A DNA stretch of 64,000 nt, from contig JAHDYJ010000004.1 of NCBI GenBank assembly GCA_023383795.1, forward strand, positions 22,603-86,602, read 5' to 3'. The translations under genes were made by a program, and so were the position numbers. This DNA is from Burkholderiales bacterium (GTDB lineage: Bacteria > Pseudomonadota > Gammaproteobacteria > Burkholderiales > SG8-39). Under the pieces are notes generated by a model. It did not search any database. It was not told where the DNA came from and saw only the letters and a list, made by a program, of their open reading frames with translations. Shown here piece by piece: positions 293 through 30,874 of the stretch (positions are counted from its first letter, which is position 1; each line of letters begins with the position of its first letter).

Positions 293-2521
293 ATGGCGGA
301 GATGAAGACCGCTGCCTACGTCTGCCAGGGGTGCGGGCTCGGCGAGCGTCTTGCGACGCAGCAGCTCGCGCAGGTGGCGCAGAAGGAGGGCAAGATGGCC
401 CTCGTGCGCGAGCACCCGTTCCTCTGCTCCGAGGCCGGCGTGCAGACGATCCGCGACGATATCGAGAAGGAGGGCGTCACGCACATCGCGATCGCGGCCT
501 GCTCGCGCCGCGCCAAGACCGAGGCGTTCCACTTCCCCGCCGTCGCCGTGTCGCGCGCGAACCTGCGCGAAGGCGTGATCTGGTCGCAGCCGGACACCGA
601 GGCGGCGCGCGAGACCACCCAGGAGATGGCCGACGACTACGTGCGCATGGCCTGCGCCGAGGTGAAGAGGATGAAGGCGCCCGCCGGCAACCCGGACGTG
701 GCGAGGAACACGCGGCTCCTGGTCGTGGGCGGCGGCATCTCGGGCATGACCGCCGCCCTCGAGGCGTCCAAGGCAGGCTACCCCGTGACGATCGTCGAGA
801 GGGCCGCCGCCCTCGGCGGGTGGGCGGCGAAGCTGTGGAAGCGCACCCCGGCGCACGAGCCGTTCCAGGCGCCCGCCGAGACCGGCGTCGCGGCCATGAT
901 CGAAGCGGTGCGCGCCGACCCGAACATCGAGGTGCGCCTCTCCTCGACGGTCGCGCGCACGAGCGGCGCGCCCGGCCGCTTCAGCGTCGAGATCGCCGCC
1001 GAATCCGGCGGCGCCGCGACCGAGGAGTTCGGCGCCATCGTGCAGGCCTCCGGGTTCTCGCTCTACGACGCGTCGAAGCTCCCCGAGCTCGGCTTCGGCA
1101 AGAGCCCGAACGTCGTCGACCAGGCCGGCCTGGAGCGGCTCGCGCGCGAGGCGGCGGCGGGCAACGCGCCGATCCGCCGCCCGTCCGACGGCGGCGAGGT
1201 GAAGACCGTCGTGTTCGTGCAGTGCGCCGGCCAGCGCGACGCGAGCGGCACGCACCTGCCCTACTGCTCCGGGCATTGCTGCGCCACCTCGATCAAGCAG
1301 GCGATGTACTTCAAGGACGCGAACCCCGCGGTCGACACGGCGGTGCTCTACACGGACCTGCGCGTGCCGGGGAACGGCGAGGACTTCTACCGCAGCGGCC
1401 AGTCGAAGGGCGTCGTCTTCACGAAGGGAAGCGTGCGCGCGGTCGAGCCCGCGGGCAACGCGTGCACGGTGCGCTTCCGCGACCTGATCCTCGACGAGGA
1501 CGCGGCGATCGAGAACGCCGATCTGGTCGTGCTCGCGACCGGCCAGGTGCCGAACTCGGGCGTCGACATCGAGAAAGTCGCCCAGAACGAGCCGGGGGAG
1601 TGGCAGTCGGACGCGAGCTCGGTGCTCAACCTCGCCTACCGCCAGGGCAAGGACCTGCCGCTCTTGCGGCACGGCTTCAGCGACTCGCACTTCATCTGCT
1701 TCCCGTACGAGACGCGCCGGACGGGGATCTATACCGCCGGCCCGGTGCGCCGGCCGATGGACATCGCGCAGGCGGTCGAGGACGCGACCGGCGCCGCGCT
1801 GAAGGCGATCCAGGCCGCCGAGAACGCCGCGCTCGGCCGCGCCGCGCACCCGCGCTCGGGCGACCTCTCCTTCCCGACGGTGCGCCTCGACGGCTGCACG
1901 CAGTGCAAGCGCTGCACGGTCGAGTGCCCGTTCGGCGCGATCGACGAGGACGAAAAGCGCTACCCGGTGTTCAACGAGAGCCGCTGCCGGCGCTGCGGCA
2001 CGTGCATGGGCGCCTGCCCGGTGCGGGTGATCTCGTTCGAGAACTACTCGGTCGACACCGTCGGCGCGCAGCTGAAGGCGGTGGACGTCCCGGACGAGTT
2101 CTCCGAGAAGCCGCGCATCCTGGTGCTCGCCTGCGAGAACGACGCCTACCCGGCGCTCGACATGGCCGGCATGGCGCGGCGCACCTACAGCGCCTTCGTG
2201 CGCATCATCCCGGTGCGCTGCCTCGGCTCGGTCAACACGATCTGGGTGTCGGACGCGCTGAACAGCGGCTACGACGGCGTGATGCTGATGGGCTGCAAGC
2301 ACGGCGACGACTACCAGTGCCACTTCGTCAAGGGCTCGGAGCTCGCCAACTACCGGATGAGCAAGATCGACGACACGCTGAAGCAGATGGCGCTCGAGAC
2401 CGAGCGCGTCGCGACCTACGAGGTCGCCATCACCGACATCGAGCGCGTGCCGCGGCTGATCGACGAGTACGCCGCGAAGATCGCCGAGATCGGGATGTCG
2501 CCGCTGAAGGGCTTCGCGTAA
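293..2521 (+). CDS. qmoB: QmoB (HdrA-like FAD/FeS protein with C-terminal MvhD-like domain)
   Basis: 742-aa ORF. Dinucleotide fold VVGGGISGMTAAL. 2x[4Fe-4S] ferredoxin motifs CTQCKRCTVECP and CRRCGTCMGACP. MvhD-like tail ILVLACENDAYPALD...GCKHGDDYQCHF. Confidence 0.9.
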   Translation: MAEMKTAAYVCQGCGLGERLATQQLAQVAQKEGKMALVREHPFLCSEAGVQTIRDDIEKEGVTHIAIAACSRRAKTEAFHFPAVAVSRANLREGVIWSQPDTEAARETTQEMADDYVRMACAEVKRMKAPAGNPDVARNTRLLVVGGGISGMTAALEASKAGYPVTIVERAAALGGWAAKLWKRTPAHEPFQAPAETGVAAMIEAVRADPNIEVRLSSTVARTSGAPGRFSVEIAAESGGAATEEFGAIVQASGFSLYDASKLPELGFGKSPNVVDQAGLERLAREAAAGNAPIRRPSDGGEVKTVVFVQCAGQRDASGTHLPYCSGHCCATSIKQAMYFKDANPAVDTAVLYTDLRVPGNGEDFYRSGQSKGVVFTKGSVRAVEPAGNACTVRFRDLILDEDAAIENADLVVLATGQVPNSGVDIEKVAQNEPGEWQSDASSVLNLAYRQGKDLPLLRHGFSDSHFICFPYETRRTGIYTAGPVRRPMDIAQAVEDATGAALKAIQAAENAALGRAAHPRSGDLSFPTVRLDGCTQCKRCTVECPFGAIDEDEKRYPVFNESRCRRCGTCMGACPVRVISFENYSVDTVGAQLKAVDVPDEFSEKPRILVLACENDAYPALDMAGMARRTYSAFVRIIPVRCLGSVNTIWVSDALNSGYDGVMLMGCKHGDDYQCHFVKGSELANYRMSKIDDTLKQMALETERVATYEVAITDIERVPRLIDEYAAKIAEIGMSPLKGFA

Positions 2522-2612
2522 CGGGTGACGGGTGATGGGTGATGGATGACCGACGACGGGAGTGACGGGCGCGCGACCGCGCGCCCGCCATCACCCTTCG
2601 CGCATCACCCGT
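2521..2612. repeat. Heptamer-repeat nested hairpin element (GGGTGAT class), copy A
   Basis: Left arm ACGGGTGACGGGTGATGGGTGATGG (2521-2545). Right arm CCATCACCCTTCGCGCATCACCCGT (2588-2612) is its imperfect reverse complement. An inner perfect 8-bp hairpin GGGCGCGC-gacc-GCGCGCCC lies at 2567-2586. Confidence 0.8.
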
Positions 2613-2631
2613 TGCCCGCGGAGCGAATGGA

Positions 2632-3255
2632 ATGAGCGAGCTGAACGAGCAGGCCCTCGCGAAGTACCGCAACAGCTTCCTGCGCGAGGTCGAGGAGCGG
2701 GTCGACGAGGGCGAGTGGGTCAAGATGTGCATGCAGTGCGGCGTGTGCGCGGGCTCGTGCCCGTTCGGCCCGCACTGGGAGCACTCGCCGCAGAAGATCT
2801 TCATGATGATCCGCGCCGGCAAGCGCGAGGAGGTGCTCGCGTCCGACTCGATGTGGATGTGCACCTCCTGCTACAACTGCGTCGTGCGCTGCCCGCGCAA
2901 GCTGCCGATCACGACCATCATGCACGGGCTCGCGACCTACGCCCACCGGCTCGGGCTCGCGCCGAAGAACCAGCCGACGCGCGACTTCTCGGTGATCTTC
3001 TGGGAGAACTTCACCCGCAACGGGCGTGCGAACGAGATCCGGCTGATGCTCCGGCTCTGGTTCAAGGACGGCATCGGCGCCGGCATCAGGAAGGCGCTCG
3101 CGATGAAGGACGTCGGCCTCGGCATGCTGCGCGCGAAGCGCATGAGCCCGCTCGAGATCTTCGGCGGGCACGGCGTCAAGGACGTCAAGGGCTTCCAGGC
3201 GATGATCAGGAAGGCACAGGAGATCGAGGACCGCAAGCGCGGGTTCTCGAAGTAG
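2632..3255 (+). CDS. hdrC: HdrC-like 4Fe-4S dicluster subunit (soluble, no membrane domain)
   Basis: 207 aa. Motifs CMQCGVCAGSCP and CTSCYNCVVRCP. GGAG lies 8 nt upstream of the ATG. No hydrophobic haem-b (QmoC/HdrE-like) segment is visible. Confidence 0.85.
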   Translation: MSELNEQALAKYRNSFLREVEERVDEGEWVKMCMQCGVCAGSCPFGPHWEHSPQKIFMMIRAGKREEVLASDSMWMCTSCYNCVVRCPRKLPITTIMHGLATYAHRLGLAPKNQPTRDFSVIFWENFTRNGRANEIRLMLRLWFKDGIGAGIRKALAMKDVGLGMLRAKRMSPLEIFGGHGVKDVKGFQAMIRKAQEIEDRKRGFSK

Positions 3256-3272
3256 CCCGGGGAGACACGGTC

Positions 3273-4184
3273 ATGGCGAAGAAGGAATACGCGTTCTACC
3301 CCGGCTGCACCTCGCACTACCGCGGCTCGGCGTCGAACTACCTGGTCTCGGTCGAGTCGATGTGCAAGACGCTCGACGTCAAGCTCACGCAGATCCCCGA
3401 CTGGAACTGCTGCGGCGCCTCGGTGAGCTACGCCGGCTCGGGCGAGCTCGCGCGCCACGTGATCAACGCGCGCAACTTCGCGCTCGCCGAGCAGAGCCTG
3501 CCCGGCCAGGACATAGTCGCCACCTGCGCCGCGTGCTGGCTGAACGCGCGCGAGAGCAAGGAGAAGCTCGACGCGAGCGCCGAGCTCCTCGCCGACACGA
3601 ACGAGGCGCTGAAGGAGGCGGGGCTGCGCTACCAGGGCGTGGCGAGCGTGCGCCACATGGTCGAGGTCCTGATCGAGGACCTCGGCTACGGGGAGATCGG
3701 CAGCCACGTCGTGAAACCGCTCGAGGGCGTGAGGTTCGCCGGCTACGTCGGCTGCCAGACCAACCGCCCGTTCGGCATCGCCGGCGAGTCGTTCGAGAAC
3801 CCCGTGTACCTCGACAAGCTCGTCGAGACGATGGGCGGCGAGGCGGTCACCGACTACGACCAGAAGGTGACCTGCTGCGGCGGCGCGCTCGCGGTCTCCG
3901 AGCCCGAGAAGAGCCAGGCGCAGATCAAGGACATCGTCGAGAGCGCCTACGATCACGGCGCCGACATGATCGTGACGCCCTGCCCGCTCTGCCAGGCGAA
4001 CGTCGAGATCTATCAGGCCGACGTCAACAAGCGCTACGGCACCAAGTTCAACATCCCGGTGACCTACTACAGCCAGCTGATGACCGTCGCCTACGGCGGC
4101 ACGGCCAAGGAGGCCGCGCTCGACGGCCAGATCATCCGCGCGACGAAGCTCGAAGAGATCGCCGCGAAGCCGGTGAAGAAGTAA
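3273..4184 (+). CDS. hdrB: HdrB-like subunit with two CCG (cysteine-rich) domains
   Basis: Internal ATG preceded by GGAGA. YAFYPGCTS...DWNCCGA and FAGYVGCQTNRP...KVTCCGGA...PCPLCQ are typical duplicated CCG domains. Confidence 0.85.
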   Translation: MAKKEYAFYPGCTSHYRGSASNYLVSVESMCKTLDVKLTQIPDWNCCGASVSYAGSGELARHVINARNFALAEQSLPGQDIVATCAACWLNARESKEKLDASAELLADTNEALKEAGLRYQGVASVRHMVEVLIEDLGYGEIGSHVVKPLEGVRFAGYVGCQTNRPFGIAGESFENPVYLDKLVETMGGEAVTDYDQKVTCCGGALAVSEPEKSQAQIKDIVESAYDHGADMIVTPCPLCQANVEIYQADVNKRYGTKFNIPVTYYSQLMTVAYGGTAKEAALDGQIIRATKLEEIAAKPVKK

Positions 4185-4305
4185 CTCGCATCCGGTCGTT
4201 CGCGCGCATCCTTTATGGATGCATACGGGAATGCTATCGCTGCGGACTGGCTCACGAGTCCGGAGGTGTGGCAGACTCGCCCGCGCACCCAGGAGGGGGA
4301 GAGTG

Positions 4306-4761
4306 ATGGGCAAGCTCGCTGAGCGCTTGTCGGACGCGGAGCGCTCGGGCGTCTACCGCGTGGAAACGACCGAGGCGCTCGAGGAGGCCGCGGTGCTGAA
4401 CGGTTTTCCGCTCGTGCGCGTCGCGCTCGACGGCGCAGCGGACGACGAGCTGTGCGCGCTCTGCGCGCGGGTGTTGACACCGGGACTGGACGGCAGCTGG
4501 CGTGGGCTCGCCGCGGCGCTCGCCGATCCCGGCTGGAGCCTGGCACCCGGTCATGTCCTGCTGTTCAGCGGTTTCGAAACGCTCGCGCGCGCCGCGCCGC
4601 GCGCGCTCGATCCGCTGCTCGACGCGCTGCGATCGGTCGCCGCGGGGCGCCGCGCCCGCGGCCAGCCGTTCTTCGCGGCATTCCTGGACCGGGCGGGAAG
4701 CCTGCCGCTCGGTCCACTGTACAATTGGCACCGGCAATCGAAGTCACAACAATCCGTTTAG
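4306..4761 (+). CDS. Hypothetical cytoplasmic protein, possibly barstar-fold family
   Basis: ATG preceded by GGAGGGGGAG. The segment LDGSWRGLAAALADPGWSLAPGHVLLF...LDPLLDALRSV resembles the barstar-family NwDAL.D.L.dl.w...vl pattern. The functional call is weak. Confidence 0.45.
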   Translation: MGKLAERLSDAERSGVYRVETTEALEEAAVLNGFPLVRVALDGAADDELCALCARVLTPGLDGSWRGLAAALADPGWSLAPGHVLLFSGFETLARAAPRALDPLLDALRSVAAGRRARGQPFFAAFLDRAGSLPLGPLYNWHRQSKSQQSV

Positions 4762-4795
4762 AGACCAACAACTAGCCACCCAGAGGAGCCACGTC

Positions 4796-6004
4796 ATGAA
4801 ACCAGATGCACCGAACATCGATCTCCATCGCCGCTGGCTGCTCGCCGCAGGCGCGGGCGGCGCCGCCGCCGGCCTGAGCGGCTTCAGCCCGGCGAGCCTC
4901 GCGCAGCAGGCTGCCACGAAGCCGCTTCCGCCCGTCGCGTCGTTCAAGGACGCGGACCGCGTAATCGTGCACAGCGCGAGCGGCGTCGAGACGCAGCGCA
5001 GCGCGTTCGGCACGAGCGGAATCACGGACCTGGACATCCTCTTCCTGCGCAACAACCTCGGGGCCCCCAACGCCTCGATCGTGGCAAATCCCGACGCCTG
5101 GCAGGTGGACATCCAGGGGGTCACCAGCCCGCGCACGCTCAGCGTCGCCGAGCTCAAGCGCATGGGGCTCGCCAGCGTCGCGATGGTGCTGCAGTGCTCG
5201 GGCAACGGCCGCGCCTTCTTCGGCCACAAGGCGAGCGGCTCGCAATGGAAGGTGGGCGCCGCGGGCAACACGCTGTGGAGCGGCGTGCGGGTGAAGGACG
5301 TGGTCACCGCGCTCGGCGGCGTGCGCGAGGGGATGCGCTACATGACCAGCACCGGCGGCGAGACCATCCCGCCCGGCGTCGAGCCGAAGAAGGTGATGGT
5401 CGAGCGCTCGGTCCCCTGGACCGCGATGGAAGAGGCGATCCTCGCCTGGGAGCTGAACGGCCGACCGATCCCGCTCGCGCACGGCGGCCCGCTGCGGCTC
5501 GTCATCCCGGGGTTCTACGGCGTCAACAACATCAAGTACGTGAAGCGCGTCGCGTTCACGACCGAGGAGACCGACGCGAACATCCAGGCCTCGGGCTACC
5601 GCGTGCGGGCGGTCGGCATGAAGGGCGCGCCCACCCAGCCGTCGATGTGGGAGATGAACCTGAAGTCGTTCGTCACCGGGCCCGCGGGCGATGCGCCGGT
5701 GCGGGCCGGCGACGTACAGATCCACGGCGTCGCGTTCTCCGGCGGCAGTCCCGTCGCCGGCGTCGAGGTCTCCCTCGATGGCGGCCGGTCGTGGCAGCCC
5801 GCGCAGTTCTTCGGGCCGGACCAGGGGCGCTACGCCTGGCGCCAGTTCGTCCTGTCGGCGAAGCTGCCGCCCGGCTCCTACGTGATCACGAGCCGGGCGA
5901 TCGCCGCCGACGGCTCGGTGCAGCCCGAGCTGCGCGTCGAGAACGAGCGCGGCTACGCCCACAACGGCTGGCGGGACCACGCGGTCAAAGTGACGGTCTC
6001 GTGA
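4796..6004 (+). CDS. sorA: Molybdopterin sulfite dehydrogenase/oxidase family protein (SorA-like), Tat-exported
   Basis: ATG preceded by GAGGAG. Tat-type leader HRRWLLAAGAGGAAAGL. Sulfite-oxidase family blocks MVLQCSGNGRAFF, GGPLRLVIPGFYGVNNIKYVKRV, and a C-terminal Ig-like dimerisation region. Confidence 0.8.
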   Translation: MKPDAPNIDLHRRWLLAAGAGGAAAGLSGFSPASLAQQAATKPLPPVASFKDADRVIVHSASGVETQRSAFGTSGITDLDILFLRNNLGAPNASIVANPDAWQVDIQGVTSPRTLSVAELKRMGLASVAMVLQCSGNGRAFFGHKASGSQWKVGAAGNTLWSGVRVKDVVTALGGVREGMRYMTSTGGETIPPGVEPKKVMVERSVPWTAMEEAILAWELNGRPIPLAHGGPLRLVIPGFYGVNNIKYVKRVAFTTEETDANIQASGYRVRAVGMKGAPTQPSMWEMNLKSFVTGPAGDAPVRAGDVQIHGVAFSGGSPVAGVEVSLDGGRSWQPAQFFGPDQGRYAWRQFVLSAKLPPGSYVITSRAIAADGSVQPELRVENERGYAHNGWRDHAVKVTVS

Positions 6005-6312
6005 GGGCAGTGCAGGCGGCAGGGCTCGCGCTCGCGCTCGCCCTGCCGCTCGCCGCGCGCGGCGACGACCTCGGCCGCAAGGTGTTCACGGAGACCGCGG
6101 AGCCGCCGTGCGCGCTCTGCCACACGCTGCAGGCGGCCGGCGCCGAGGGCACGATCGGCCCCTCGCTCGACGAGCTCAAGCCCGACAGGGACCGCATCGT
6201 GCAGGCGGTCCGCAAGGGCGTCGGCGTGATGCCGCCATTCGCGGACAAGCTGTCGGAGGCGGAGATCCAGGCGGTCGCGGCCTTCGTCGCGAAGGCCGTC
6301 GGCAATCGGTAG
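6001..6312 (+). CDS. sorB: Small monohaem cytochrome c (SorB-like electron acceptor)
   Basis: The GTG start overlaps the sorA stop (GTGA). Signal peptide present. A single CALCH haem motif plus downstream GVMPPF Met ligand region. Confidence 0.75.
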   Translation: MRAVQAAGLALALALPLAARGDDLGRKVFTETAEPPCALCHTLQAAGAEGTIGPSLDELKPDRDRIVQAVRKGVGVMPPFADKLSEAEIQAVAAFVAKAVGNR

Positions 6313-21857: not shown

Positions 21858-22670
21858 TCAGAAGACCGAAGCGACGAGCTCATTCAGCGCAGCGAGCGTC
21901 TCCGGTTCGTCGGTGAGCGGCTCTGCGATCGCCGCAAGACAGGCCGTGCGCGGCGCCACGCCGAGCATGACCAGTTTGCCGGCGTGCACCAGCAGCCGGG
22001 TGCTCGCGCCTTCGTCGAGGCCGTTTCCCTTGAGGTTGCGCGTCATGCCCGCGAGCCGCACCAGGCGCTCGGCCGTGCCCTCGTCGACGCCGGTCTCGTG
22101 CGCGACGATGCGGCGCTCCAGCGCCGGCTCCGGATGCCCGAACTCGATCGCGACGAAGCGCTGCCGCGTGCTCTGCTTGAGCTCCTTCAGCACGCTCTGG
22201 TAGCCGGGGTTGTAGGAGAGCGCCAGCAGGAACTCGGGCGGCGCGCGCAGGACCTCGCCGGTCTTCTCCACCGGCAGGATGCGGCGGTCGTCGGCGAGCG
22301 GGTGGATCACGACGGTGGTGTCCTTGCGCGCCTCGACGATCTCGTCCAGGTAGCAGATCGCGCCGAGCCGCACTGCGGCGGCGAGCGGGCCGTCCACCCA
22401 CACCGTCTCGGCGCCGATGATCAGATAGCGGCCGACGAGATCCGACGCGGTCAGGTCGTCGTGGCAGGAGACGGTGACGAGCGGCCGCCCGAGCCGCCAG
22501 GCCATGAACTCCATGAAGCGCGTCTTGCCGCAGCCGGTCGGCCCCTTGAGAAGCACCGGCACGCGGCTCGCGTGGGCCGCCTCGAAGAGGCGCACCTCGT
22601 CGCCGACCGGCTCGTAGTAGGGCTCGGATCTGACGAGGTACTGGTCGGCGCTGTGGGCGCGGGTGTCCAT
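21858..22670 (-). CDS. MoxR-class AAA+ ATPase of the CbbQ/NorQ family
   Basis: [26 protein letters not shown]...[13 protein letters not shown] (Walker A), with the typical CbbQ/NorQ N-terminus. The track ORF start at 22724 lies inside a repeat array and was rejected. Confidence 0.85.
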
Positions 22671-22676
22671 GACGAA

Positions 22677-22771
22677 GTGGACAGTGGACAGTGGACAGTT
22701 GGCAGTTGGCAGTTGGCGGTTCAACGAAGCCTAGGCACGCGCATCGCTCCGTCTGCTGCCCACTGCCCACT
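22677..22771. repeat. Heptamer-repeat inverted repeat (CAGTGGR class), copy D
   Basis: GTGGACA x3 followed by GTTGGCA x3 (22677-22719). The opposing arm is CTGCTGCCCACTGCCCACT (22753-22771). It fills the ykgJ-cbbQ spacer and ends 6 nt from the cbbQ ATG. Confidence 0.8.
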
Positions 22772-22777
22772 TTCTTT

Positions 22778-23677
22778 TCAGTCGTCCAGGCTGTCGTACA
22801 TCCGGTCCTGCTCGGCGGCGCGCCTCGCGGCCGCCTCGCGCTCGGTCGCCTCGACCTTGTCCTTGTAGCGTGCGAGGCGCCGCGCGGCGGCATCCCGGCG
22901 CAGCGGAATCGACATCTCGCCGAACAGCGTCTGGCGCAGGAAGCGCATCGCGAACGAGAGCAGCGTCTCGTCGTCGCTCGCGATCGCGCGCAGAAGGCCG
23001 GGCTCGAGCTCGAAGAGCTCCTGGAAGCCGGGGCTCATCACGAACGCACGGAAGCCGTCGACGTCATAGCTCGCGAGGAAGAAGAGCTCGAGGCTCTTCT
23101 GCGACGGCTTGCCGATCGCCGGCCCGCCCGAGCGCTTCTTCAGGATGATGCGCCGCCATTCCCGGTTCGCCTCGTCGTACGGCTCGAGGCCCTGCTCCCG
23201 GCGGTACTCGCGCACGGTCTGCTCGTGCGGCTCCTGGTGCCCGAGGCAGTGGGCCTCCTTCACGACGAAGTACGCGTCCTCGTCCGCGGCCGACTCCTTC
23301 CGCCGCATCGACATCAGTCCGAGCGCGTAGTAACGGCACGCCGAGGGCCGGTCCTCGTAGACGCTGCAGCCTTCGGGCGTGAGGTAGATGCACTCGTTCG
23401 AGCCCTCCTTCGTCTTGAGCTTCAGCCCCGGCATGCCGTGCCCGTCCATCTGGAAGTCGCGCGTGTCGCGGTCGATCCACTCGCGCGCCGGGAGGTCGAA
23501 GCGTCGCTTCAGCCGCAGCACGTCGTAGGGCGTCAGCATGATGTCGATGTTCCGGCAGCACTGATTGAAGCATGCAATGCCTTTATGGCAGCGGAAGCGG
23601 AACTTGTCAGCCAGGCCGAGCTGCACCGGCTGCACCGGCGAGACGGGCACGGGATCGCGAATGTCTTCGGGGGTCAT
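22778..23677 (-). CDS. YkgJ-family (UPF0153) cysteine-cluster protein
   Basis: CHKGIACFNQCCRN (CxxCxxCC-type cluster) plus the later CIYLTPEGCSVYEDRPSACRYY, typical of the YkgJ zinc/iron-binding family. Confidence 0.8.
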   Translation of the reverse strand: MTPEDIRDPVPVSPVQPVQLGLADKFRFRCHKGIACFNQCCRNIDIMLTPYDVLRLKRRFDLPAREWIDRDTRDFQMDGHGMPGLKLKTKEGSNECIYLTPEGCSVYEDRPSACRYYALGLMSMRRKESAADEDAYFVVKEAHCLGHQEPHEQTVREYRREQGLEPYDEANREWRRIILKKRSGGPAIGKPSQKSLELFFLASYDVDGFRAFVMSPGFQELFELEPGLLRAIASDDETLLSFAMRFLRQTLFGEMSIPLRRDAAARRLARYKDKVEATEREAAARRAAEQDRMYDSLDD

Positions 23678-23886
23678 CTGGGCAGAAAAGCTGCAACAGC
23701 GGCCGGGCCAAGCTACCCGAGGGCCCGTCCGATGTCCAGCGGCGCGCGGGGTCGGTCCGCCGCGGGGTCGAGCGCGCTCGCCCGCCGTCGGCGCCGGGGG
23801 CCTCGCCGCGGATTTGGCAGCTTTCGTTCGTGCCCGGTAGGATTACGGCTGCGAACGCTGCAGTCGGCGAGACAGAGGAAAAAAAC

Positions 23887-25173
23887 ATGAAGCGCACCCG
23901 CCCCTTGTCGCTGGGCCTCGGCAACGTCAGCCAGGCCGATCTGGAGGCGGCACCGGACCGCACGCCGCGCGCCGCCCGCGCGAGCGGCCTCGACCGCTCG
24001 CTCTGTCGCGCCCTGCTGCGCGCGGCCGGCAGCCCGCCGGTTGCGCTCCGGCTGTGGAACGGCGAGGTCGTCTCGACCGCGGATGCCGCCCCGGTCGCGA
24101 CGGTCGTGCTGCGCGACCGCGGCGCGCTCTATCGCCTGATCCGGAACCCGGATCTGCATTTCGGCGACCTCTACAGCGTCGGGCGGATCGACGTCGAAGG
24201 CGACTTCGTCGCGTTGCTGGAGGCGATCTATCGCGGCATGGGGCACCTGCACGGCAATGCGCTCGTGCGCCTGCGCGAGCGGCTCACGAACCGCCCGCGC
24301 GTCAACACCCTCGCCGGGTCGCGCGAGAACATCCACCACCACTACGATCTCGGCAACGAGTTCTACCGGCTGTGGCTCGACACGGCCGCGATGCAGTACA
24401 CCTGCGCCTACTATCCCGACCCGGCGATGTCGCTCGAGCAGGCCCAGGTCGCCAAGCTCGACCACGTCGCGCGGAAGCTCCGCCTCAAGCCCGGCGACCG
24501 GGTGGTCGAGGCCGGCTGCGGCTGGGGCGGGCTCGCGCGGCATTTCGCGCGGAGCTACGGGGTCACCGTCCGGGCGTACAACATCTCGAGCGAGCAGGTC
24601 GCCTTCGCGCGCGAGCGCGCCCGCGACGAGGGCCTCGCGGACCGCGTCGAGTACGTGCTCGACGACTACCGCAACATCGAGGGCAGCTACGACGTGTTCG
24701 TCTCGGTCGGGATGCTCGAGCACGTCGGGCCCACGAACTACGGCACGCTCGGCGACGTCATCGACCGCTGCCTCGCGCCGCACGGTCGCGGCTTCATCCA
24801 CTCGATCGGGCGCAACCGCCCGGGCAAGATGAACGCCTGGATCGAGAAGCGGATCTTTCCCGGCGCGTACCCGCCGTCGCTCGGCGAGATGATGGCGATC
24901 TTCGAGCCGCGGCGGTTCTCCGTGCTCGACGTCGAGAACCTGCGCCTGCACTACGCGCAGACGCTGCGCCACTGGCTCGAGCGCTTCGAGCGCAACGCGG
25001 GGACGATCGAGGACATGTTCGACCCGTTCTTCGTGCGCGCCTGGCGGCTCTACCTCGCCGGCTCCATCGCGGCCTTCACGACCGGATCGCTGCAGCTCTT
25101 CCAGGTCGTCTTCGCCCGCGGCGCCGACAACGAGCTTCCCTGGTCGCGGGCGCACCTGCACCCGCAGGCCTGA
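23887..25173 (+). CDS. cfa: Cyclopropane-fatty-acyl-phospholipid synthase family methyltransferase
   Basis: HYDLGNEFYRLWLD, SAM motif VVEAGCGWGGLA, FVSVGMLEHVG, IEKRIFPGAYPPSL and YLAGS.AAF are all canonical Cfa/mycolic acid methyltransferase blocks. Confidence 0.9.
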   Translation: MKRTRPLSLGLGNVSQADLEAAPDRTPRAARASGLDRSLCRALLRAAGSPPVALRLWNGEVVSTADAAPVATVVLRDRGALYRLIRNPDLHFGDLYSVGRIDVEGDFVALLEAIYRGMGHLHGNALVRLRERLTNRPRVNTLAGSRENIHHHYDLGNEFYRLWLDTAAMQYTCAYYPDPAMSLEQAQVAKLDHVARKLRLKPGDRVVEAGCGWGGLARHFARSYGVTVRAYNISSEQVAFARERARDEGLADRVEYVLDDYRNIEGSYDVFVSVGMLEHVGPTNYGTLGDVIDRCLAPHGRGFIHSIGRNRPGKMNAWIEKRIFPGAYPPSLGEMMAIFEPRRFSVLDVENLRLHYAQTLRHWLERFERNAGTIEDMFDPFFVRAWRLYLAGSIAAFTTGSLQLFQVVFARGADNELPWSRAHLHPQA

Positions 25174-25226
25174 GCGTCCGGCCGCGCCGCGGCGCGGGCG
25201 ATCCGGAGCGGCGTGCAACGCGCGCC

Positions 25227-25260
25227 GGGAAAGCAAACGGGGCCCGGCGTACCGGGCCCC
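25227..25260 (-). terminator. Intrinsic terminator downstream of aprA (sited between convergent cfa and aprA)
   Basis: Perfect 9-bp stem GGGGCCCGG-cgta-CCGGGCCCC (25239-25260). On the minus-strand RNA it is followed by GUUUGCUUUCC. Confidence 0.6.
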
Positions 25261-25289
25261 GCTCGCCTGTCCTGGAGGACGCGGCGCCG

Positions 25290-27206
25290 CTACTTGATCA
25301 GCTGGACGTACGGAACCTTCTTGATCTCCCACTGCTTGGTGTTGCGGTCGTAGCGGGAGTTGACGAAGCACTTCCAGTTCTCGTCGTCGATGTAGTTGTG
25401 GTCCATCCGGTAGTAGAAGCCCGGGTAACGGGTCTCCTCGCGGAACTGGATGTGCTTCATGTGCGCTTCGGCCGCGATGATGCGGTGGTAGTTCTCCCAC
25501 GCGCGCAGCAGCTCGTGCAGGTCCTTCGCACGCATCTTCAGCGAGTCTTCCTTCAGCATCTCGAGCTTCTTCTCGGCGACCTTGAGCATCGCGCCGTTGG
25601 TCCGGTAGTAGGTCGCCACGCCCGCCACGTACTCGTCCATGAGCTTCTGCAGCCGGAACTGCAGCATCTTGGGCGTGATGTAGTGCGGGTTGACGTCGAT
25701 CGCGGTGGTGTAGTCCTTGTGCTCGAGGAAGGTCTTGACCGGCCGGTAGATCTCCTCGACGAGCTCCGCGGTCGTGCGCGAGGACTCCGGCTTCCAGTCC
25801 TTGTTGTCGAGCGCGAAACGGACCATGGCCTTGGCCGCGATGCGCCCCTCGGTGAACGACCCCGACGAGAACTTGTGGCCCGAGGCGCCGACGCCGTCGC
25901 CGGCGGTGAACAGCCCCTTCACCGTGGTCATCGAGCGATAGCCCCAGCTCCACTCCTCCGGCACGCCCGGCAGGTCGGTCGGCCCGGACACCCAGATCCC
26001 GGCGCAGCCCGAGTGCGAGCCGAGCAGATACGGCTCGGTCGGCATGATTTCGGACGGAGTCTTCTCGGGCTCGATGTTCTCGCCGGCCCAGATGCCGCAC
26101 TGGCCGATCGTCATGTCGAGGAAGTCCTCCCACGCCTCGGCCTCGAGGTGCTTGACCTCCTTTGGCGTCATCTTCTCGGCGAGCTTCTGCATCGCGGTCG
26201 GCGTGTCCATGTAGATCGGACCGCGGCCGGCAAGCATCTCCTCGAGCATGATGTGGTTGCGCAGGCAGGTGCCCGGGACGCCGTGGCCGTACTTGCCGAA
26301 GCGCTTCTCGTCCTTGATGATGTCGGCGCGCAGGGTCGAGTAGTCCTCGCCGAAGCCGTTCATCACCTTCGCCTTGAAGAGCAGGAACCACGCCCCGACC
26401 GGCCCGTAGCCGTCCTTGAAGCGCGCCGGGACGAAGCGGTTCTCCATCATCGTCAGCTCGGCGCCGCACTCGGCCGCCATCGCGTAGGTCGAGCCTGCGT
26501 TCCACACCGGGTACCACGCGCGGCCGGTGCCTTCGCCGACCGAGCGCGGCCGGAACACGTTCACCGCGCCGCCCGCCACGAGCAGGCAGCACTTGAACTT
26601 GTAGATGTAGAGCTTGTGCTCGCGCACCGAGAAGCCGGCGGCGGCGGCGACCCGGCTCGGGTCGTTCTTGTCGGTGACCAGGCGCACGATGAACACGCGC
26701 TCCTGGATGTTCTCCATCCCGAGCGCCTTCTTCGCGGCCTCGGCGACGATCCACTTGTAGGACTCGCCGTTGATCATGATCTGCCACTTGCCCGAGCGCA
26801 CCGGCTTGCCGCCGGCGCGCAGCGACTTGTCCTCGTCGCCCGGCTGTTTCCAGATCGGCAGCCCCCAGTCCTCGAAGTTGTGGACCGAGTCGTCGACGTG
26901 GCGGCCGACGTCGTACACCAGGTCCTCGCGGATGATGCCCATGAGGTCGTTCCTCACGTAGCGCACGTAGTCCGATGGGTCGTTCTCGCCGCAGTAGGTG
27001 TTGATCGCCGACAGGCCCTGCGCGACCGCGCCCGAGCGCGACAGCGCCGCCTTGTCGACCAGCTTGATCTTCAGGTTCGCGCCGGCCGCCTTTGCCCACT
27101 GGCCGATCTCGAACGCCGCGCCGCAGGCGGCCATGCCGCCGCCGATGATCAGGACGTCGACCTCTTCCTCGACGATCTCGGGATTGCCGAATCCAAACTC
27201 TGCCAT
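25290..27206 (-). CDS. aprA: Adenylylsulfate (APS) reductase alpha subunit
   Basis: 638 aa. The N-terminus MAEFGFGNPEIVEEEVDVLIIGGGMAACGAAFE and the whole length are typical of AprA FAD subunits. Confidence 0.95.
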   Translation of the reverse strand: MAEFGFGNPEIVEEEVDVLIIGGGMAACGAAFEIGQWAKAAGANLKIKLVDKAALSRSGAVAQGLSAINTYCGENDPSDYVRYVRNDLMGIIREDLVYDVGRHVDDSVHNFEDWGLPIWKQPGDEDKSLRAGGKPVRSGKWQIMINGESYKWIVAEAAKKALGMENIQERVFIVRLVTDKNDPSRVAAAAGFSVREHKLYIYKFKCCLLVAGGAVNVFRPRSVGEGTGRAWYPVWNAGSTYAMAAECGAELTMMENRFVPARFKDGYGPVGAWFLLFKAKVMNGFGEDYSTLRADIIKDEKRFGKYGHGVPGTCLRNHIMLEEMLAGRGPIYMDTPTAMQKLAEKMTPKEVKHLEAEAWEDFLDMTIGQCGIWAGENIEPEKTPSEIMPTEPYLLGSHSGCAGIWVSGPTDLPGVPEEWSWGYRSMTTVKGLFTAGDGVGASGHKFSSGSFTEGRIAAKAMVRFALDNKDWKPESSRTTAELVEEIYRPVKTFLEHKDYTTAIDVNPHYITPKMLQFRLQKLMDEYVAGVATYYRTNGAMLKVAEKKLEMLKEDSLKMRAKDLHELLRAWENYHRIIAAEAHMKHIQFREETRYPGFYYRMDHNYIDDENWKCFVNSRYDRNTKQWEIKKVPYVQLIK

Positions 27207-27262
27207 GTTGCTTCCTTTCAGTCCGGCTGCGCCCGACTCCGGGGCGCCCTGCCGGGGAAACT

Positions 27263-27378
27263 GTGATGGGTGATGGGTAATGGGTGATGGGTGATGGAAA
27301 TCCGTCCTCTGCAGACCGGTCGGGGGTAATCAGGGTGGGGCGTCGCGCCCATCACCCGTCACCCTTCGCCCATCACCC
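27263..27378. repeat. Heptamer-repeat inverted repeat (GGGTGAT class), copy B
   Basis: Left arm of five heptamers GTGATGG GTGATGG GTAATGG GTGATGG GTGATGG (27263-27297). 50-nt spacer. Right arm CCCATCACCCGTCACCCTTCGCCCATCACCC (27348-27378) abuts and overlaps the aprB stop codon. Confidence 0.85.
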
Positions 27379-27837
27379 TTTGAGGAACTGGCTCATGTCG
27401 ACCTTGTGCGTCCCCTTCGTGAAGAGCACCTTGTCGTCGGTCGCGTCCTTCCAGTCCGCGGCGGGCTTGCCGCCGTACGGGTCCGCCGAGCCCTCCGGCG
27501 TCGTGCGGATCGGGAACTTGAAGCGCTTCACGGTGCCGTTCCGGAACTTGATGGTCCACAGGATCGAGTCCGAGCCGCGCAGCGGCTGGACCGATGCGCC
27601 GAGCGGCACGATGTCGGCGTAGTGGCGCACCTCGATCGCGTTCTGCGGGCAGATCTTCACGCAGGAGTAGCACTCCCAGCACTGCTCGGGCTCCTGGTTG
27701 TAGGCCTTCATCGCATGGCCGGTCTGCGAGCCGTCCTTGTCGAGCATCATCAGGTCGTGCGGGCAGATGTACATGCAGGCGGTCTTGTCCTGGCCCTTGC
27801 AGCCGTCGCACTTGTCGGTACGGACGAAAGTCGGCAT
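27373..27837 (-). CDS. aprB: Adenylylsulfate (APS) reductase beta subunit
   Basis: MPTFVRTDKCDGCKG...ACMYICPHDLM...CWECYSCVKICPQ: two [4Fe-4S] motifs and the typical AprB tail. GGAG precedes the ATG at 27837. The track ORF start at 27897 lies in repeat array C. Confidence 0.9.
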   Translation of the reverse strand: MPTFVRTDKCDGCKGQDKTACMYICPHDLMMLDKDGSQTGHAMKAYNQEPEQCWECYSCVKICPQNAIEVRHYADIVPLGASVQPLRGSDSILWTIKFRNGTVKRFKFPIRTTPEGSADPYGGKPAADWKDATDDKVLFTKGTHKVDMSQFLKG

Positions 27838-27857
27838 TGCCTTCTCCTCGTAAAACC

Positions 27858-27906
27858 CGTGAATCGTGAATCGTAGCTCGTGAACCGCGGATCGCAAGTC
27901 GTCGAA
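27858..27906. repeat. Degenerate period-7 array (CGTGAAT class), copy C
   Basis: CGTGAAT CGTGAAT CGTAGCT CGTGAAC CGCGGAT CGCAAGT CGTCGAA: seven consecutive heptamers each starting CG(T/C), located in the sat-aprB spacer. Confidence 0.6.
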
Positions 27907-27912
27907 AACCGG

Positions 27913-29130
27913 TCAGCGCGCCGAGTGTCCGGCGAGCTTCACCTCCACCTTCTCGTGCGCCGCCAGCCCGGCGTAGTACTCGCGCAGGATCTCCAGCACC
28001 TCGGGCCGGCTGAACTCGGCCGGCACCGGCGAGCCCTCGGACAGCCACTTGCGCAGCTTCGTGCCCGACACGAGCAGGCGGTCCTCGTCGGCGTGCGGGC
28101 AGGTGCGCGCCGAGGCCATGCCGCCGCAGCGGTAGCACCAGAACGTCCAGTCGATCTTGAGCGGGCGCGTCTCGAGCGATCCGGCCGGGATCTCGTCGAA
28201 GATGCGGTGCGCGTCGAACGGCCCGTAGTAGCTGCCGACGCCGGCGTGGTCGCGCCCGACGATCAGGTGCGAGCAGCCGTAGTTCTGGCGGAAGAGCGCG
28301 TGCAGCAGCGCCTCGCGCGGTCCGGCGTAGCGCATGTCGAGCGGATAGCCCGCCTGCACCACCGTGTTCCTCACGAAATAGCGCTCGATCAGCGCGGCGA
28401 TCGCGCGAGTGCGCACCTCGGCCGGGATGTCGCCGGGCTTCAGCGCGCCGAGCAGCGAATGCACCAGCACGCCGTCGCAGGTCTCGATGGCGACCTTGGC
28501 GAGATATTCGTGCGAACGGTGCATCGGGTTGCGCGTCTGGAAGGCGGCCACCCGCGACCAGCCGAGCGACTCGAACAGCGCGCGCGTCTCGCGCGGCGTC
28601 AAGAACAGCGCGCCGTAGCGCTCCGGGAAGCCGCCGGTCGAGAGCACCTTGACCGGCCCCGCCAGGTTCACCTCGCCCTGCTCCATCACCATCTTGACGC
28701 CGGGGTGCTCGAGGTCCGCCGTCCTGAACACCATCATGCACTCGTGCGCCTTGTCGATGGCGTACTTCTCGGTGACCTGCATGACCGCGAGGATTTCGCC
28801 GTCCCCGCCGTCGGCGAGCGCGATCTCGGCGCCGGTCCGGATCGAGTCCGCCGTGGCGCGGTCGGTGGAGAGCGTGATCGGGATCGGCCAGAAGAGGTCG
28901 CTCGCGAGCTTCATGCCGTCGCACACGCGCTCCCAGTCGCCGTGCGTCATGAATCCGTCGAGCGGCGTGAACCCGCCGATGCCGAGCATGATGAGGTCGC
29001 CCTTCTCGCGCGAGCTGACCGCAATGCGCGGCAGCGTGCGCGCGCGGGCGAGCGCATCGGCGCGCTCGGCGCCCTCGAGCAACAGCGGCTTGAGTGGTCC
29101 CCCACCGTGGGGGTTGACAAGACCTGGCAC
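27913..29130 (-). CDS. sat: Sulfate adenylyltransferase (ATP sulfurylase), dissimilatory type
   Basis: [16 protein letters not shown] and GRDHAGVG motifs. I prefer the GTG at 29130 (AGGAGA 5 nt upstream) over the track start at 29148. Confidence 0.9.
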
Positions 29131-29445
29131 GCTTTCTCCTGACGGCACGAGCCGCGCGGCGGCTTCGCCGCGCCGGTCTGCCTGGCGGCGCGCCGATCTC
29201 TTTCCGGGTCTTCTTGGACGTCGCGCGCCGCCGGAGCACCGGCGGACAATGCCTCGTTCGCGCGCGCGGGATCAGCGAGCACCGTATTCTGACGGGGTCG
29301 GCCCGCGGGCAGAAAGTGGTTATTTTGATCCGCTGATAAACCTCCCTGTTTGGGGCCGCGGCGGACGTGCGCGGGCCGCATTTCCGGTCGCGGGACGGCC
29401 GCCTTGGTAGACTTGCGGCATCGGACGGGAATTCTGGGGGCGGCG

Positions 29446-29805
29446 ATGAGCGCGGCGGCAAGAACGCAGGCAGTGGCGGCCGGGACGGGCGGCGGCGGGA
29501 TGGGCAAGCAGGACTTCGCGCCCGACACGCGCTACACGCTCACCTGGCGGGACGAGCGCGGCCGGGAGCGGCCCCTGAACATCTACGTCTACCGGACCTA
29601 CGACGGCTTCATGGTGGCGCGGGAGACCTCGGGCGCGGGGCTCGTGCGCAAGATCGCCTATGCCGACGTCGTGCGTGTCGTGCTCGCGCAGCCGGTCCCG
29701 CCGGCCGCGCGCTACTTCCTGCCGGCCGCCGTGCTCGACGAGAAGAACTGGCGCGACCGGACCACGATGCAGCATTACGCCACCGCGCCGGGGCTCGGCA
29801 AGTAG
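29446..29805 (+). CDS. Small hypothetical protein (alternative start 29500)
   Basis: 119 aa (101 aa from the alternative start). The stop TAG at 29803-29805 is 1 nt before the GTG of the ChrB-like gene. No family recognised. Confidence 0.5.
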   Translation: MSAAARTQAVAAGTGGGGMGKQDFAPDTRYTLTWRDERGRERPLNIYVYRTYDGFMVARETSGAGLVRKIAYADVVRVVLAQPVPPAARYFLPAAVLDEKNWRDRTTMQHYATAPGLGK

Positions 29806-29806
29806 C

Positions 29807-30805
29807 GTGGGCGAGCAGAGCCCGCCCGCAGCGGACGCGCCCACGCGCTGGCTGGCGCTGGTTGCGGCGCTGCCGCGCGACGACGCGGCCGGGCGCATGC
29901 ACGCCCTGCGCACGCTCGAAGGCCTCGGGTGCGCGGTGATGCGCGAGGGCGTCTACCTGCTGCCCGACACGCCCGGCAACCGCGCGAGCTTCCAGCGGCT
30001 CGTCGACCACATCGCGCGGATCAAGGGCGACGCCTGGCTGCTGCCGGTGCAGACGGAGAGCGCCGCGGAGGCGAAGCGCCTGCGCACGATGTTCGATCGC
30101 AGCGGCCGCTACAGCGAGCTCATCAAGACGGTCGAGGGCCTGAAGGCGGGCTTCGGCATCTCCGATCCGACCGCGATCGGGCAGGTCCTCGCCAAGCAGC
30201 GGCGCGAGCTCGAGGCGATCACCTCGCTCGACTTCTTCGTGTCGCCGCTGAAGGAGCGCGCCGAGCGCTTGCTCGCCGAGATGGAGGCGCGCGTCCGCGA
30301 GATGATGTTTCCCGACGACGCCGCGCCGCCCGGCGCGCTGCCGGCGGCGCGCTCGAAGCGGCAGTACTTCCGGCGGGCCTGGGCCACGCGCAAGCCGCTG
30401 TTCGCCGACCGGCTGGCGAGCGCGTGGCTGATCCGGCGCTTCATCGACCCGGAGGCGAGGATGCTGTGGCTGGACAAGCGCGAGCCCTGTCCGGCGACCG
30501 CGGTCGGGTTCGCCTTCGACGGCGCCGAGTTCCGCAACTCGAAGACGCGCGTGACCTACGAGGAGCTTCTCGCGAGCTTCAGGCTCGACCGGCAGGCCAG
30601 CCTCGTCAAGATCGGCCGGCTCGTGCACGCGCTCGACGCCGGCAACAAGCGCATGCCCGAGGCGGCCGGCGTCGAGACGCTGCTCGCCGGTGCGCGCCAC
30701 CGCGCCTCGAACGAGGACGAGCTCCTGCGCGAGAGCGAGCGGACCTTCGACCTGCTCTACGAGGCGTACTACGAAATGCCGAAGAAGGAGGACAGCGGAC
30801 AGTAG
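29807..30805 (+). CDS. ChrB-family (chromate resistance-associated) protein
   Basis: The C-terminal block RAWATRKPLFADRLASAWLIRRFIDPEARMLW matches the conserved ChrB C-domain signature. N-terminal ChrB-N-like region. No chrA transporter gene is in the window. Confidence 0.7.
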   Translation: MGEQSPPAADAPTRWLALVAALPRDDAAGRMHALRTLEGLGCAVMREGVYLLPDTPGNRASFQRLVDHIARIKGDAWLLPVQTESAAEAKRLRTMFDRSGRYSELIKTVEGLKAGFGISDPTAIGQVLAKQRRELEAITSLDFFVSPLKERAERLLAEMEARVREMMFPDDAAPPGALPAARSKRQYFRRAWATRKPLFADRLASAWLIRRFIDPEARMLWLDKREPCPATAVGFAFDGAEFRNSKTRVTYEELLASFRLDRQASLVKIGRLVHALDAGNKRMPEAAGVETLLAGARHRASNEDELLRESERTFDLLYEAYYEMPKKEDSGQ

Positions 30806-30874
30806 TCAGTGGGCAGTAGCCTGCAGTTCACTGTCCACTGCTCCCTGCTCCCTACCCACTGCCCACTGTCCACT
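30806..30874. repeat. Heptamer-repeat element (CAGTGGG/CACTGYC class), copy E
   Basis: CAGTGGGCAGT (30807-30817) pairs perfectly with ACTGCCCACTG (30858-30868). 30829-30874 is a run of 6.5 heptamers: CACTGTC CACTGCT CCCTGCT CCCTACC CACTGCC CACTGTC CACT. It fills the whole convergent spacer. Confidence 0.8.

Follow-up and report, generated by a model that had tools for sequence, protein, structure and literature searches.

We show that several intergenic spacers of a 64,000-nt stretch of DNA from a Burkholderiales-like sulfur oxidiser of 71% GC (contig JAHDYJ010000004.1, positions 22,603 to 86,602; this whole stretch is hereafter the window) contain arrays of tandem heptanucleotides, all the strong ones facing their own reverse complement. 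On balance, we favour the view that these arrays are heptanucleotide simple sequence repeats (SSRs) of the long-SSR (LSSR) or short tandemly repeated repetitive (STRR) type, arranged as convergent inverted pairs, which were born by slippage and are tolerated since the hairpin they encode folds out. We found that strains differ by the gain or loss of whole units in either arm, as replication slippage would give, and that genomes bearing such arrays tend to hold many of them with unrelated units, the period and not the sequence being constant. In addition, comparison with orthologous spacers shows that the arrays arose recently in this lineage. The arrays belong to an already described type of repeat and are not a new kind of genetic element.

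Inverted heptamer arrays in the window

A period-7 search with Tandem Repeats Finder (TRF) returned rows at 2521-2550, 22676-22721, 22756-22771, 27263-27297, 27348-27378, 27858-27874 and 30829-30874. In four spacers (2521-2618, 22676-22772, 27263-27378 and 30790-30877) a heptamer array faces its reverse-complement array, the inverted arms being 26-37 nt long and 73-87% complementary. We labelled these elements E1 to E4, and a further one, found in a sister strain (locus L247), E5. The parts of E1 to E4 and two single arrays are listed here.

2522-2549, + strand: E1 G-rich arm, CGGGTGA CGGGTGA TGGGTGA TGGATGA
2550-2587, + strand: E1 loop, which holds its own perfect G+C hairpin GGGCGCGCGACCGCGCGCCC at 2567-2586
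2588-2618, + strand: E1 C-rich arm, CCATCAC CCTTCGC GCATCAC CCGTTGC CCG
22753-22772, - strand (coding): E2 G-rich arm, AAGTGGGCAGTGGGCAGCAG
22676-22721, - strand (coding): E2 C-rich arm, AACCGCC, (AACTGCC)x2, AACTGTC, (CACTGTC)x2
27348-27378, - strand (coding): E3 G-rich arm, GGGTGAT GGGCGAA GGGTGAC GGGTGAT GGG
27298-27347, - strand: E3 loop, whose sequence is unrelated to that of any other element's loop, with the motif ACCCCCGACCGG-N-ACGGATTT
27263-27297, - strand (coding): E3 C-rich arm, CCATCAC CCATCAC CCATTAC CCATCAC CCATCAC
30790-30817, + strand: E4 arm that is G-rich on +, GGACAGC GGACAGT AGTCAGT GGGCAGT
30829-30877, - strand: E4 arm that is G-rich on -, CACTGYC-type units as read on the + strand
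27858-27906, - strand: decayed single-arm array in the sat-aprB spacer, on the + strand CGTGAAT x2 (2.4 perfect copies), then five units
35697-35717, + strand: weak single C-type arm, TTCCCAC TCCTCAC GCCTCAC

The spacers concerned separate genes for QmoB-like and HdrC-like proteins (E1), for a CxxCxxCC YkgJ-type protein and a CbbQ-type AAA protein (E2), for AprB and AprA (E3) and for Sat and AprB (decayed array), and the ChrB and M48 peptidase genes converge on E4. All strong arrays are in spacers, and the intragenic period-7 rows are G+C low-complexity stretches only. An earlier, sequence-only reading of this DNA had described heptamer arrays in five spacers, inverted in four of them, and had stressed a constant period, a variable unit and an inverted design, mostly inside operons. 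TRF and folding agree with this description, the fifth array being a decayed single arm, and the gene identities match the labels then given. The same reading had reported no array in the 37-64 kb half; there, too, we found no comparable array, the only period-7 TRF rows being G+C low-complexity stretches. In the decayed array at 27858-27906 the last five units retain the CG phase only, and there is no partner arm. Between a canonical terminator at 35628-35653 and soxB sits the weak arm of 35697-35717, 12 nt upstream of the gene.

The sister-strain contig contains a fifth inverted array, E5 (L247 1050-1161), 7 kb upstream of the window start, within the 7.4 kb of sister-strain sequence that extends beyond that start. 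E5 represents a third unit class, GTGAACG, GTGAACA and GTGAGCA against ACCGTTN, and is located between an Fe-S subunit gene and a DmsC-type subunit gene of a molybdopterin oxidoreductase operon. The 71 kb in total thus hold three unit classes, in five inverted and two single arrays.

A self-match scan of the window (matches at 17 or more of 21 positions, for lags of 4-12) found five clusters at period 7 and 0-2 at each other period from 4 to 12, and second-order Markov simulations of the window (n=100) produced 0.15 clusters at period 7 on average and never more than 3.

Strains differ by whole units

Look-ups by exact protein yielded an 85.7-kb contig of a sister strain (JGI sample 3300009873, contig Ga0131077_10003873), which contains loci L228, L238 and L247 and is 99.0-99.2% identical to the window, plus short Logan contigs; AprA and the CbbQ-type protein gave no match, and the response regulator and YkgJ gave short Logan contigs only. 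The aprB-aprA spacer, which holds E3, was recovered in three lengths, from three strains of at least 99% identity.

L238 (sister strain): 159 nt, G-arm of 3 units, C-arm of 5 units
Window: 166 nt, G-arm of 4 units, C-arm of 5 units
L001 (Logan): 173 nt, G-arm of 4 units, C-arm of 6 units

The length change therefore lies in the G-arm in L238 and in the C-arm in L001, one unit each. The sequence-only reading had proposed that the arrays are prone to slippage and had suggested a search for copy-number change in multiples of 7 among strains; three alleles that are apart by exactly one unit each are what that proposal anticipated. Over the 20.3 kb in which the window and L238 were aligned there are nine indels, and the sole one longer than 3 nt is the 7-nt deletion in the E3 array. 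By a shift of register, all three alleles retain a long predicted stem (-54.7, -60.0 and -63.3 kcal/mol for 159, 166 and 173 nt). E1 and E4 have the same length across the sampled strains and show substitutions only (6 in 110 nt and 5 in about 100 nt, respectively). For E2, the comparison covers the 36 nt adjoining ykgJ, over which one Logan contig matches the window exactly.

The arrays are not an assembly artefact, since they turn up again both in an independent JGI contig and in Logan contigs of several sequencing runs. Runs in which this population is present include SRR25685063, SRR30294430-33, SRR30947071-72, SRR36072186-89, SRR19543874 and SRR25131595. Short-read assemblies are, in turn, broken by the arrays within the qmo-hdr and ykgJ-cbbQ operons, given that Logan contigs begin or end inside E1 and E2 (5' ends among L229-L237, 3' end of L246): among the matches listed, seven of the ten hdrC contigs start within E1, and the single Logan ykgJ contig terminates inside E2.

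Relatives lack the arrays

A scan with AprA, taking one genome per species, provided 80 loci, the best of them 89% identical, and the closest relatives are betaproteobacterial or Burkholderiales-like metagenome-assembled genomes (MAGs), Pelomicrobium among them. Synteny with the window over M48, chrB, sat, aprB, aprA, ykgJ and cbbQ is seen in three metagenome contigs, L082-L084, whose AprB is 85-87% identical. We found no heptamer arrays in the orthologous spacers of the 80 species and these three contigs, and likewise none in those of the syntenic relatives L002-L010 (AprA 82-89% identical). The junctions compare as follows.

ykgJ-cbbQ junction: 41 nt or overlapping genes in relatives, 107 nt in the window
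M48-chrB junction: 15-58 nt in relatives, 67 nt in the window
aprB-aprA junction: 75-133 nt in relatives, 166 nt in the window

Between the E3 C-rich arm and aprA there is a 56-nt segment, of which L002 and L082 have a recognisable counterpart for the portion between GGCAGGGCGC and the ATG of aprA. The absence of arrays in relatives, together with their short spacers, marks the arrays as lineage-specific insertions or expansions in ancestrally tight junctions. Missing as they are from the orthologous spacers of relatives, the arrays form no conserved part of the regulation of these operons; for the same reason, cross-species covariation analysis is not possible.

The E3 loop deserves a separate mention. 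At 27300-27330 (- strand) it carries a two-part motif, ATYACCCCCGACCGG-N(3-10)-GGACGGATTTC, which opens with one ATCACCC unit. A Thiohalobacter MAG has the same two-part motif (L027 2459-2486) some 220 nt upstream of its aprB gene, and no other fetched locus has it besides L027 and the own-lineage contigs L001 and L238. This candidate motif might be a conserved apr leader, a binding site or an array seed.

Heptamer arrays with free units in other genomes

Across the apr loci of other sulfur oxidisers (1.3 Mb), heptamer arrays are rare overall, at 8.4 per Mb, which is not above periods 6 or 8, and they are concentrated in few genomes. One of these is a Thiotrichaceae MAG (L028, 45% GC) with two inverted pairs of AGTGGAT/AGTGGAC-type units, AGTGGAC being the E2 unit, and another is the Thiohalobacter MAG L027, with GTGAGGN arrays and an 18-copy TTCTGGA array. 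The TTCTGGA x18 array (L027 6957-7085) is 99% perfect and stands beside shorter GAGTGAG and GCTTCCA arrays. In L028, at 792-1015 and 2453-2733, the arrays flank a repeated core palindrome, GGTGGNCTAGAGGCTTCAGCCGG...CCGGCTAAAGCCTCTA, of which one copy has a second palindrome nested inside, and they look like part of a mobile element or of one resembling repetitive extragenic palindromic (REP) sequences.

A metagenome scan for (GGGTGAY)3 identified at least 120 unrelated loci, with G+C contents of 29-73%. Array densities were counted without the query arrays and without one locus, L174, which was excluded from the statistics: its AGGGTTT / GGGTTTC arrays reach 42 copies, and it is probably eukaryotic (plant-type) telomeric or subtelomeric DNA. 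Among the matches listed, further heptamer arrays whose units differ are found in the (GGGTGAY)3 loci at 164 per Mb, as compared with an average of 28 per Mb for periods 5, 6 and 8 in the same contigs and with the 8.4 per Mb at period 7 in the control apr loci, a density about 20 times that of the controls. Again among the matches listed, another heptamer array with a different unit is present in 40 of the 74 loci of at least 3 kb, and the same pattern was seen in 23 viral-collection matches. Given these dense heptamer arrays of unrelated units in array-bearing contigs, the period appears to be a property of particular genomes, with the unit left free.

Three of the scanned loci (L086, L090 and L104) are one 19.8-kb viral-collection contig, IMGVR_UViG_3300010885_000060, of about 40% GC, which has at least three (GGGTGAY)3 arrays, two of them with an inverted partner about 125 nt away. 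The inverted architecture extends, then, to DNA of low G+C content and of putative phage or prophage origin.

Arm order and position relative to stop codons

The five inverted elements all open with the G-rich arm and close with the C-rich one, an order that is identical on either strand owing to the symmetry of inverted elements. Moreover, the arms adjacent to a stop codon are G-rich on the coding strand of that gene in six cases out of six. The E1 array begins 1 nt past the TAA stop of the qmoB-like gene (2519-2521), the E2 G-rich arm starts 5 nt past the TGA stop of the ykgJ-type gene (22778-22780), and the TGA stop of aprB (27373-27375) sits inside the first G-arm unit of E3. At E4, the + strand G-rich arm overlaps the last codons and TAG stop (30803-30805) of chrB, and the convergent gene for the M48 peptidase has its TAG stop (30873-30875) inside the - strand G-rich arm. 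In L247, the stop of the Fe-S subunit gene directly precedes the E5 stem. On the 3' side, the E1 C-rich arm is followed by the GGAG Shine-Dalgarno (SD) sequence of the hdrC-like gene (2620-2623) and then by its ATG (2632), and the E2 C-rich arm stops 5 nt short of the ATG of the CbbQ-type gene (start at 22670).

The metagenome arrays follow a similar order. Among the matches listed, (GGGTGAY)3 arrays have their reverse-complement partner downstream in 17 cases and upstream in one. We also examined, among these matches, the 71 arrays with at least 400 nt of flank for the ends of open reading frames (ORFs) of at least 100 aa: on the G-strand side an ORF ends no more than 40 nt before the array in 23 and within the first unit in 8 more (31/71), and on the C-strand side, where the 40 nt only were counted, an ORF ends in 7/71. 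In L179, for instance, a 533-aa ORF ends 5 nt before GGGTGAC x3, which is followed by a short G+C loop and then by GTCACCC x4. This orientation and placement at stop codons is the rule published for the Xanthomonas and Nostoc repeats (PMC4692102).

Predicted folding of the spacers

The spacers were folded as coding-strand RNA, with z-scores taken against dinucleotide shuffles.

E1, qmoB-hdrC: -81.7 kcal/mol, z -7.5
E2, ykgJ-cbbQ: -46.2 kcal/mol, z -3.0
E3, aprB-aprA: -60 to -64 kcal/mol, z -3.6 to -5.0
E4, chrB/M48: -55.6 kcal/mol (- strand) and -40.5 kcal/mol (+ strand), z -5.8 and -2.6

Overall, the predicted hairpin energies lie between -40 and -84 kcal/mol and the z-scores between -2.6 and -7.5, and E5 in L247 folds as well (z -3.7). 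The in silico folding that the earlier reading had recommended therefore finds the four inverted spacers more stable than shuffles, and not so the decayed array at 27858-27906, which shows no excess structure (z +0.36).

The predicted stem base adjoins a stop codon in E1, E2, E3 and L247, and a start codon or SD sequence in E1, E2 and L247. In E1, the last qmoB codons (GCUUCGCG) are predicted to pair at the stem base with CGCGGAGC, which contains the hdrC SD sequence, and the predicted E2 stem extends from 5 nt past the stop to 5 nt before the AUG. In L247, UAAGGAGC is found ahead of the hairpin and UUGAAUCCAUG behind it, and the spacing from SD to AUG is predicted to be normal only with the 100-nt hairpin folded out.

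Other features of the window

A canonical intrinsic terminator, with an 11-bp G+C stem followed by TTTTTCTTCTT, is located at 35628-35653 (+ strand), between a soxX-like gene and soxB, and indicates that ordinary terminators are in use elsewhere in this organism. ARAGORN called a tRNA-Pyl (anticodon CTA) at 41935-42023 (- strand), inside a long ORF at about 40293-42053; the ORF is, by synteny with L238, a gene of glycosyltransferase 41 type, and the call is probably a false positive.

Origin and persistence of the arrays

In the explanation that we favour, replication slippage would generate the arrays, and only arrays whose two arms pair would persist under selection. The transcript would fold the extra 70-110 nt out as a single long imperfect hairpin, leaving the upstream stop and the downstream ribosome-binding site (RBS) or start side by side at the stem base, and the insertion would thereby be tolerated in a translationally coupled operon. 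The G-first order may also be selected: a C-rich, G-poor arm that emerged first from RNA polymerase, for example the G-free (CCAUCAC)5, would be an exposed Rho loading site, and a C-rich arm that emerges second would pair at once with the G-arm. Changes in copy number would re-register the stem with a modest effect on stability, and any tuning of expression would be a side effect rather than a designed switch.

By analogy, the hairpin probably also serves as a 3'-end protector, in the manner of REP sequences and bacterial interspersed mosaic elements (BIMEs), or as a target of RNase III. The REP/BIME elements of enterobacteria are intercistronic or 3' imperfect palindromes that fold in mRNA and shield upstream segments from 3' exonucleases, and these elements and long double-stranded RNA stems are the basis for the ideas of 3'-end protection and RNase III cleavage. 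The likeness to REP/BIME is functional only. Those elements are copies of one conserved 35-40 nt palindrome and are linked to the REP-associated RAYT transposase; they are not tandem heptamers and do not change in 7-nt steps.

Several points weigh against this explanation. Its RNA-level steps are inferred throughout, as are an effect on mRNA stability or translational coupling and the Rho-loading argument for the arm order, and it does not account for a period of exactly 7. The juxtaposition of stop and start is inapplicable to E3, since 56 nt separate its end from aprA. A comparison of the window with the sister strain revealed no compensatory base changes (E4), and the predicted folds just shift register. 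Furthermore, units recur across loci: E1 and E3 have GGGTGAY in common, and CAGTGGR appears in both E2 and E4 and again in the distant Thiotrichaceae MAG L028. Purely independent local slippage would not predict such recurrence. In the window strain, E1 (2588-2618) and E3 (27348-27378) even share a rare two-change variant, GCGAA, in ...GCGAAGGGTGA...; the sister strain is without this variant in both, since E1 reads GTGAC there (L228 2957-2987) and the E3 unit is deleted (L238 about 3646-3670). The recurring units and GCGAA hint at copying between loci, in the case of E1 and E3 at exchange (ectopic conversion) between arrays 25 kb apart, or at sequence-specific selection.

Alternative explanations

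The arrays might instead be selected cis-regulatory RNA elements or contingency rheostats, in which slippage tunes cistron ratios (AprB:AprA, QmoB:HdrC) or mRNA processing. Their presence within operons for multi-subunit redox enzymes, the variation of copy number between strains, the dependence of predicted stability on the allele (-54.7, -60.0 and -63.3 kcal/mol) and the predicted pairing of the hdrC SD sequence at the E1 stem base would all fit this idea. We nonetheless regard it as unlikely. The same spacers are without arrays in all relatives examined, so these operons work without them, and the case for regulation appears weakened by this absence; E4 lies between convergent, unrelated genes; and among the sampled strains length varies in one of the four window arrays. 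In Xanthomonas, the genes associated with the repeats span functional classes and phase variation was judged unlikely (PMC4692102). A more elaborate possibility, which seems to us rather improbable, is that the inverted arrays form a functional, self-renewing intercistronic module. Here the G-first hairpin would form during transcription with its Rho site hidden, and the stop, held next to the following start, would permit ribosome re-initiation across roughly 100 nt; the GGUGAU units would also be complementary to the conserved 16S 3' tail GAUCACC. Gain or loss of units in either arm would act as a heritable rheostat of subunit ratios in core sulfur-oxidation operons, and units would be exchanged between loci by ectopic conversion.

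Long stable hairpins predicted directly after stop codons, the location of E4 between convergent genes and the continuation of the + strand of E2 into CTTTCTTTTC could also suggest transcription terminators or attenuators, bidirectional at E4 and partial in the intra-operon elements. This is very unlikely, given that on the coding strand the 3' arms are not followed by a U-tract and that an intrinsic-terminator scan did not call any array; in addition, relatives have ordinary terminators after aprA, and full termination at aprB-aprA or qmoB-hdrC would split the subunits of one enzyme. We attach an equally low probability to miniature mobile elements with heptamer terminal inverted repeats (MITEs, meaning miniature inverted-repeat transposable elements, or REP or REPIN-like elements) that spread by transposition or recombination. 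Such elements could explain lineage-specific insertions of 70-110 nt in otherwise short spacers, arm units common to distant loci with the rare GCGAA in both E1 and E3, and the L028 arrays of AGTGGAT/AGTGGAC type, which flank a repeated core palindrome with a nested palindromic insertion in one copy. However, the five elements have loops or cores that bear no relation to one another, pairwise BLAST finding similarity in the repeat arms only and no conserved palindrome of REP or REPIN type common to the five; the arms are unequal in unit number and composition; and strains differ by single-unit gain or loss, not by presence versus absence. No target-site duplication is visible at the element ends, though this was not the object of a dedicated search. 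The aprB stop falls within the first E3 unit, and the end of that gene resembles those of relatives (L002 AAGGGGTAA, L084 AAGGGCTGA). For the Xanthomonas repeats, PMC4692102 reports no association with mobile elements.

Finally, the arrays could be G-quadruplex (G4) elements of the Xanthomonas/Nostoc GGGNATC type, whose effect near gene ends would be exerted by G4 (and i-motif) structures of the DNA or RNA. Both E3 arms and the - strand G-rich arm of E4 contain a canonical G3N1-7 x4 motif, three of the seven canonical G4 motifs of the whole window fall in arrays, and position and orientation fit the rule for G4 repeats (PMC4692102). We consider this reading highly improbable. The canonical motif is not found in E1 or E2. 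The CAGTGGA and CAGTTGG units have GG runs only, and the printed E5 units (GTGAACG, GTGAGCA, GTGAACA) show only two G3 runs, although L247 was not scanned for G4. In each inverted pair, moreover, the complementary arm is predicted to compete for the G-tracts through a far more stable duplex, and the constants are the period and the hairpin rather than the G-tracts. With two of the four window elements lacking the canonical motif, G4 was rejected as a unifying feature. The same was done with TGA in all three frames, which is true of GGGTGAY; CAGTGGR and CAGTTGG have no stop codon. The whole window had no match at gathering score in Rfam 15, and a permissive Rfam search of two spacers gave far-below-threshold matches only, mostly to generic miRNA-precursor hairpin models.

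Relation to described heptamer repeats

The suggestion of the sequence-only reading that these arrays form an undescribed family does not stand, as precedents exist in Xanthomonas (PMC4692102), in cyanobacteria (PMC2670836) and in sulfur oxidisers (PMC4679880). In Xanthomonas campestris and X. axonopodis, GGGAATC repeats occur as convergent inverted pairs, 70-75 per genome, beside stop codons (Rehm et al. 2015, PMC4692102). The likeness includes a 7-nt unit with a G3 run, a strong intergenic bias and opposite-strand arrays in convergent orientation, as well as length and sequence that vary among close relatives or species with the pair type retained, and the lack of a link to mobile elements. 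The differences are in the units, which are GGGTGAY, CAGTGGR/CAGTTGG and GTGAACN here as opposed to GGGAATC, with several classes in 71 kb; in the presence of four G3 tracts in some arms only; and in the host, a 71% GC Burkholderiales-like sulfur oxidiser. None of the units described here matches the consensus GGGAATC or GGGGA(C/T)T given for the Xanthomonas and Nostoc repeats.

Cyanobacterial STRR sequences provide a second parallel. A hairpin of 7-base repeats is located between hupS and hupL, where a role in transcript stability or translational coupling was suggested (PMC2670836), and STRR units are listed in PMC2408588. Like the arrays of the window, STRRs are 7-bp tandem units with several classes per genome, can form hairpins and lie between subunit genes of a redox enzyme, and some of their units resemble ours (ccactga ctactgac versus CCACTGC CCACTGT). 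They differ in belonging to another phylum with low-GC genomes, and paired inverted arrays are reported to be rare in Nostoc (PMC4692102), whereas all strong arrays are paired here.

At the level of genome statistics, heptanucleotide SSRs are the top class of long SSR in many high-GC bacteria, and a period-specific slippage bias has been proposed for LSSRs (Mrazek 2007, as summarised in PMC4679880 and PMC4692102). By those summaries, period 7 dominates in scattered lineages with large, high-GC genomes, Burkholderia included, and the sporadic enrichment of whole genomes is reproduced here in metagenome contigs. The LSSR work was a statistical survey, and the summaries do not credit it with the inverted-pair architecture or the position at stop codons. 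Sulfur oxidisers have a heptamer repeat of their own: intergenic TAACTGA arrays of 2-6 copies are present in marine Beggiatoaceae and Thiocystis violascens, often a few nt upstream of a start without a canonical RBS, and a post-transcriptional role has been proposed for them (MacGregor 2015, PMC4679880). Here, a comparable position at a start codon is confined to one arm, the E2 C-arm, which ends 5 nt short of the cbbQ-type ATG. TAACTGA is, besides, a single AT-rich unit in 169 direct sets versus one indirect, not at stop codons (PMC4679880), in contrast to the paired arrays of the window.

Implications

To these described repeats our study adds natural alleles that are one unit apart, in either arm, evidence that the arrays recently entered gene junctions where the ancestral state was a short spacer or an overlap, and the finding that the rule of a G-arm first, at the stop, also applies across unrelated metagenome contigs. 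These additions bear on the question of heptamer-array function, which dates from 1990 for the cyanobacterial STRRs and was raised again in 2015 for Xanthomonas. They also lead to two testable ideas, namely that the folding out of the hairpin preserves translational coupling and that the arm order avoids Rho loading. In practical terms, the arrays break short-read assemblies inside operons, leaving MAGs fragmented at apr, qmo and related loci.

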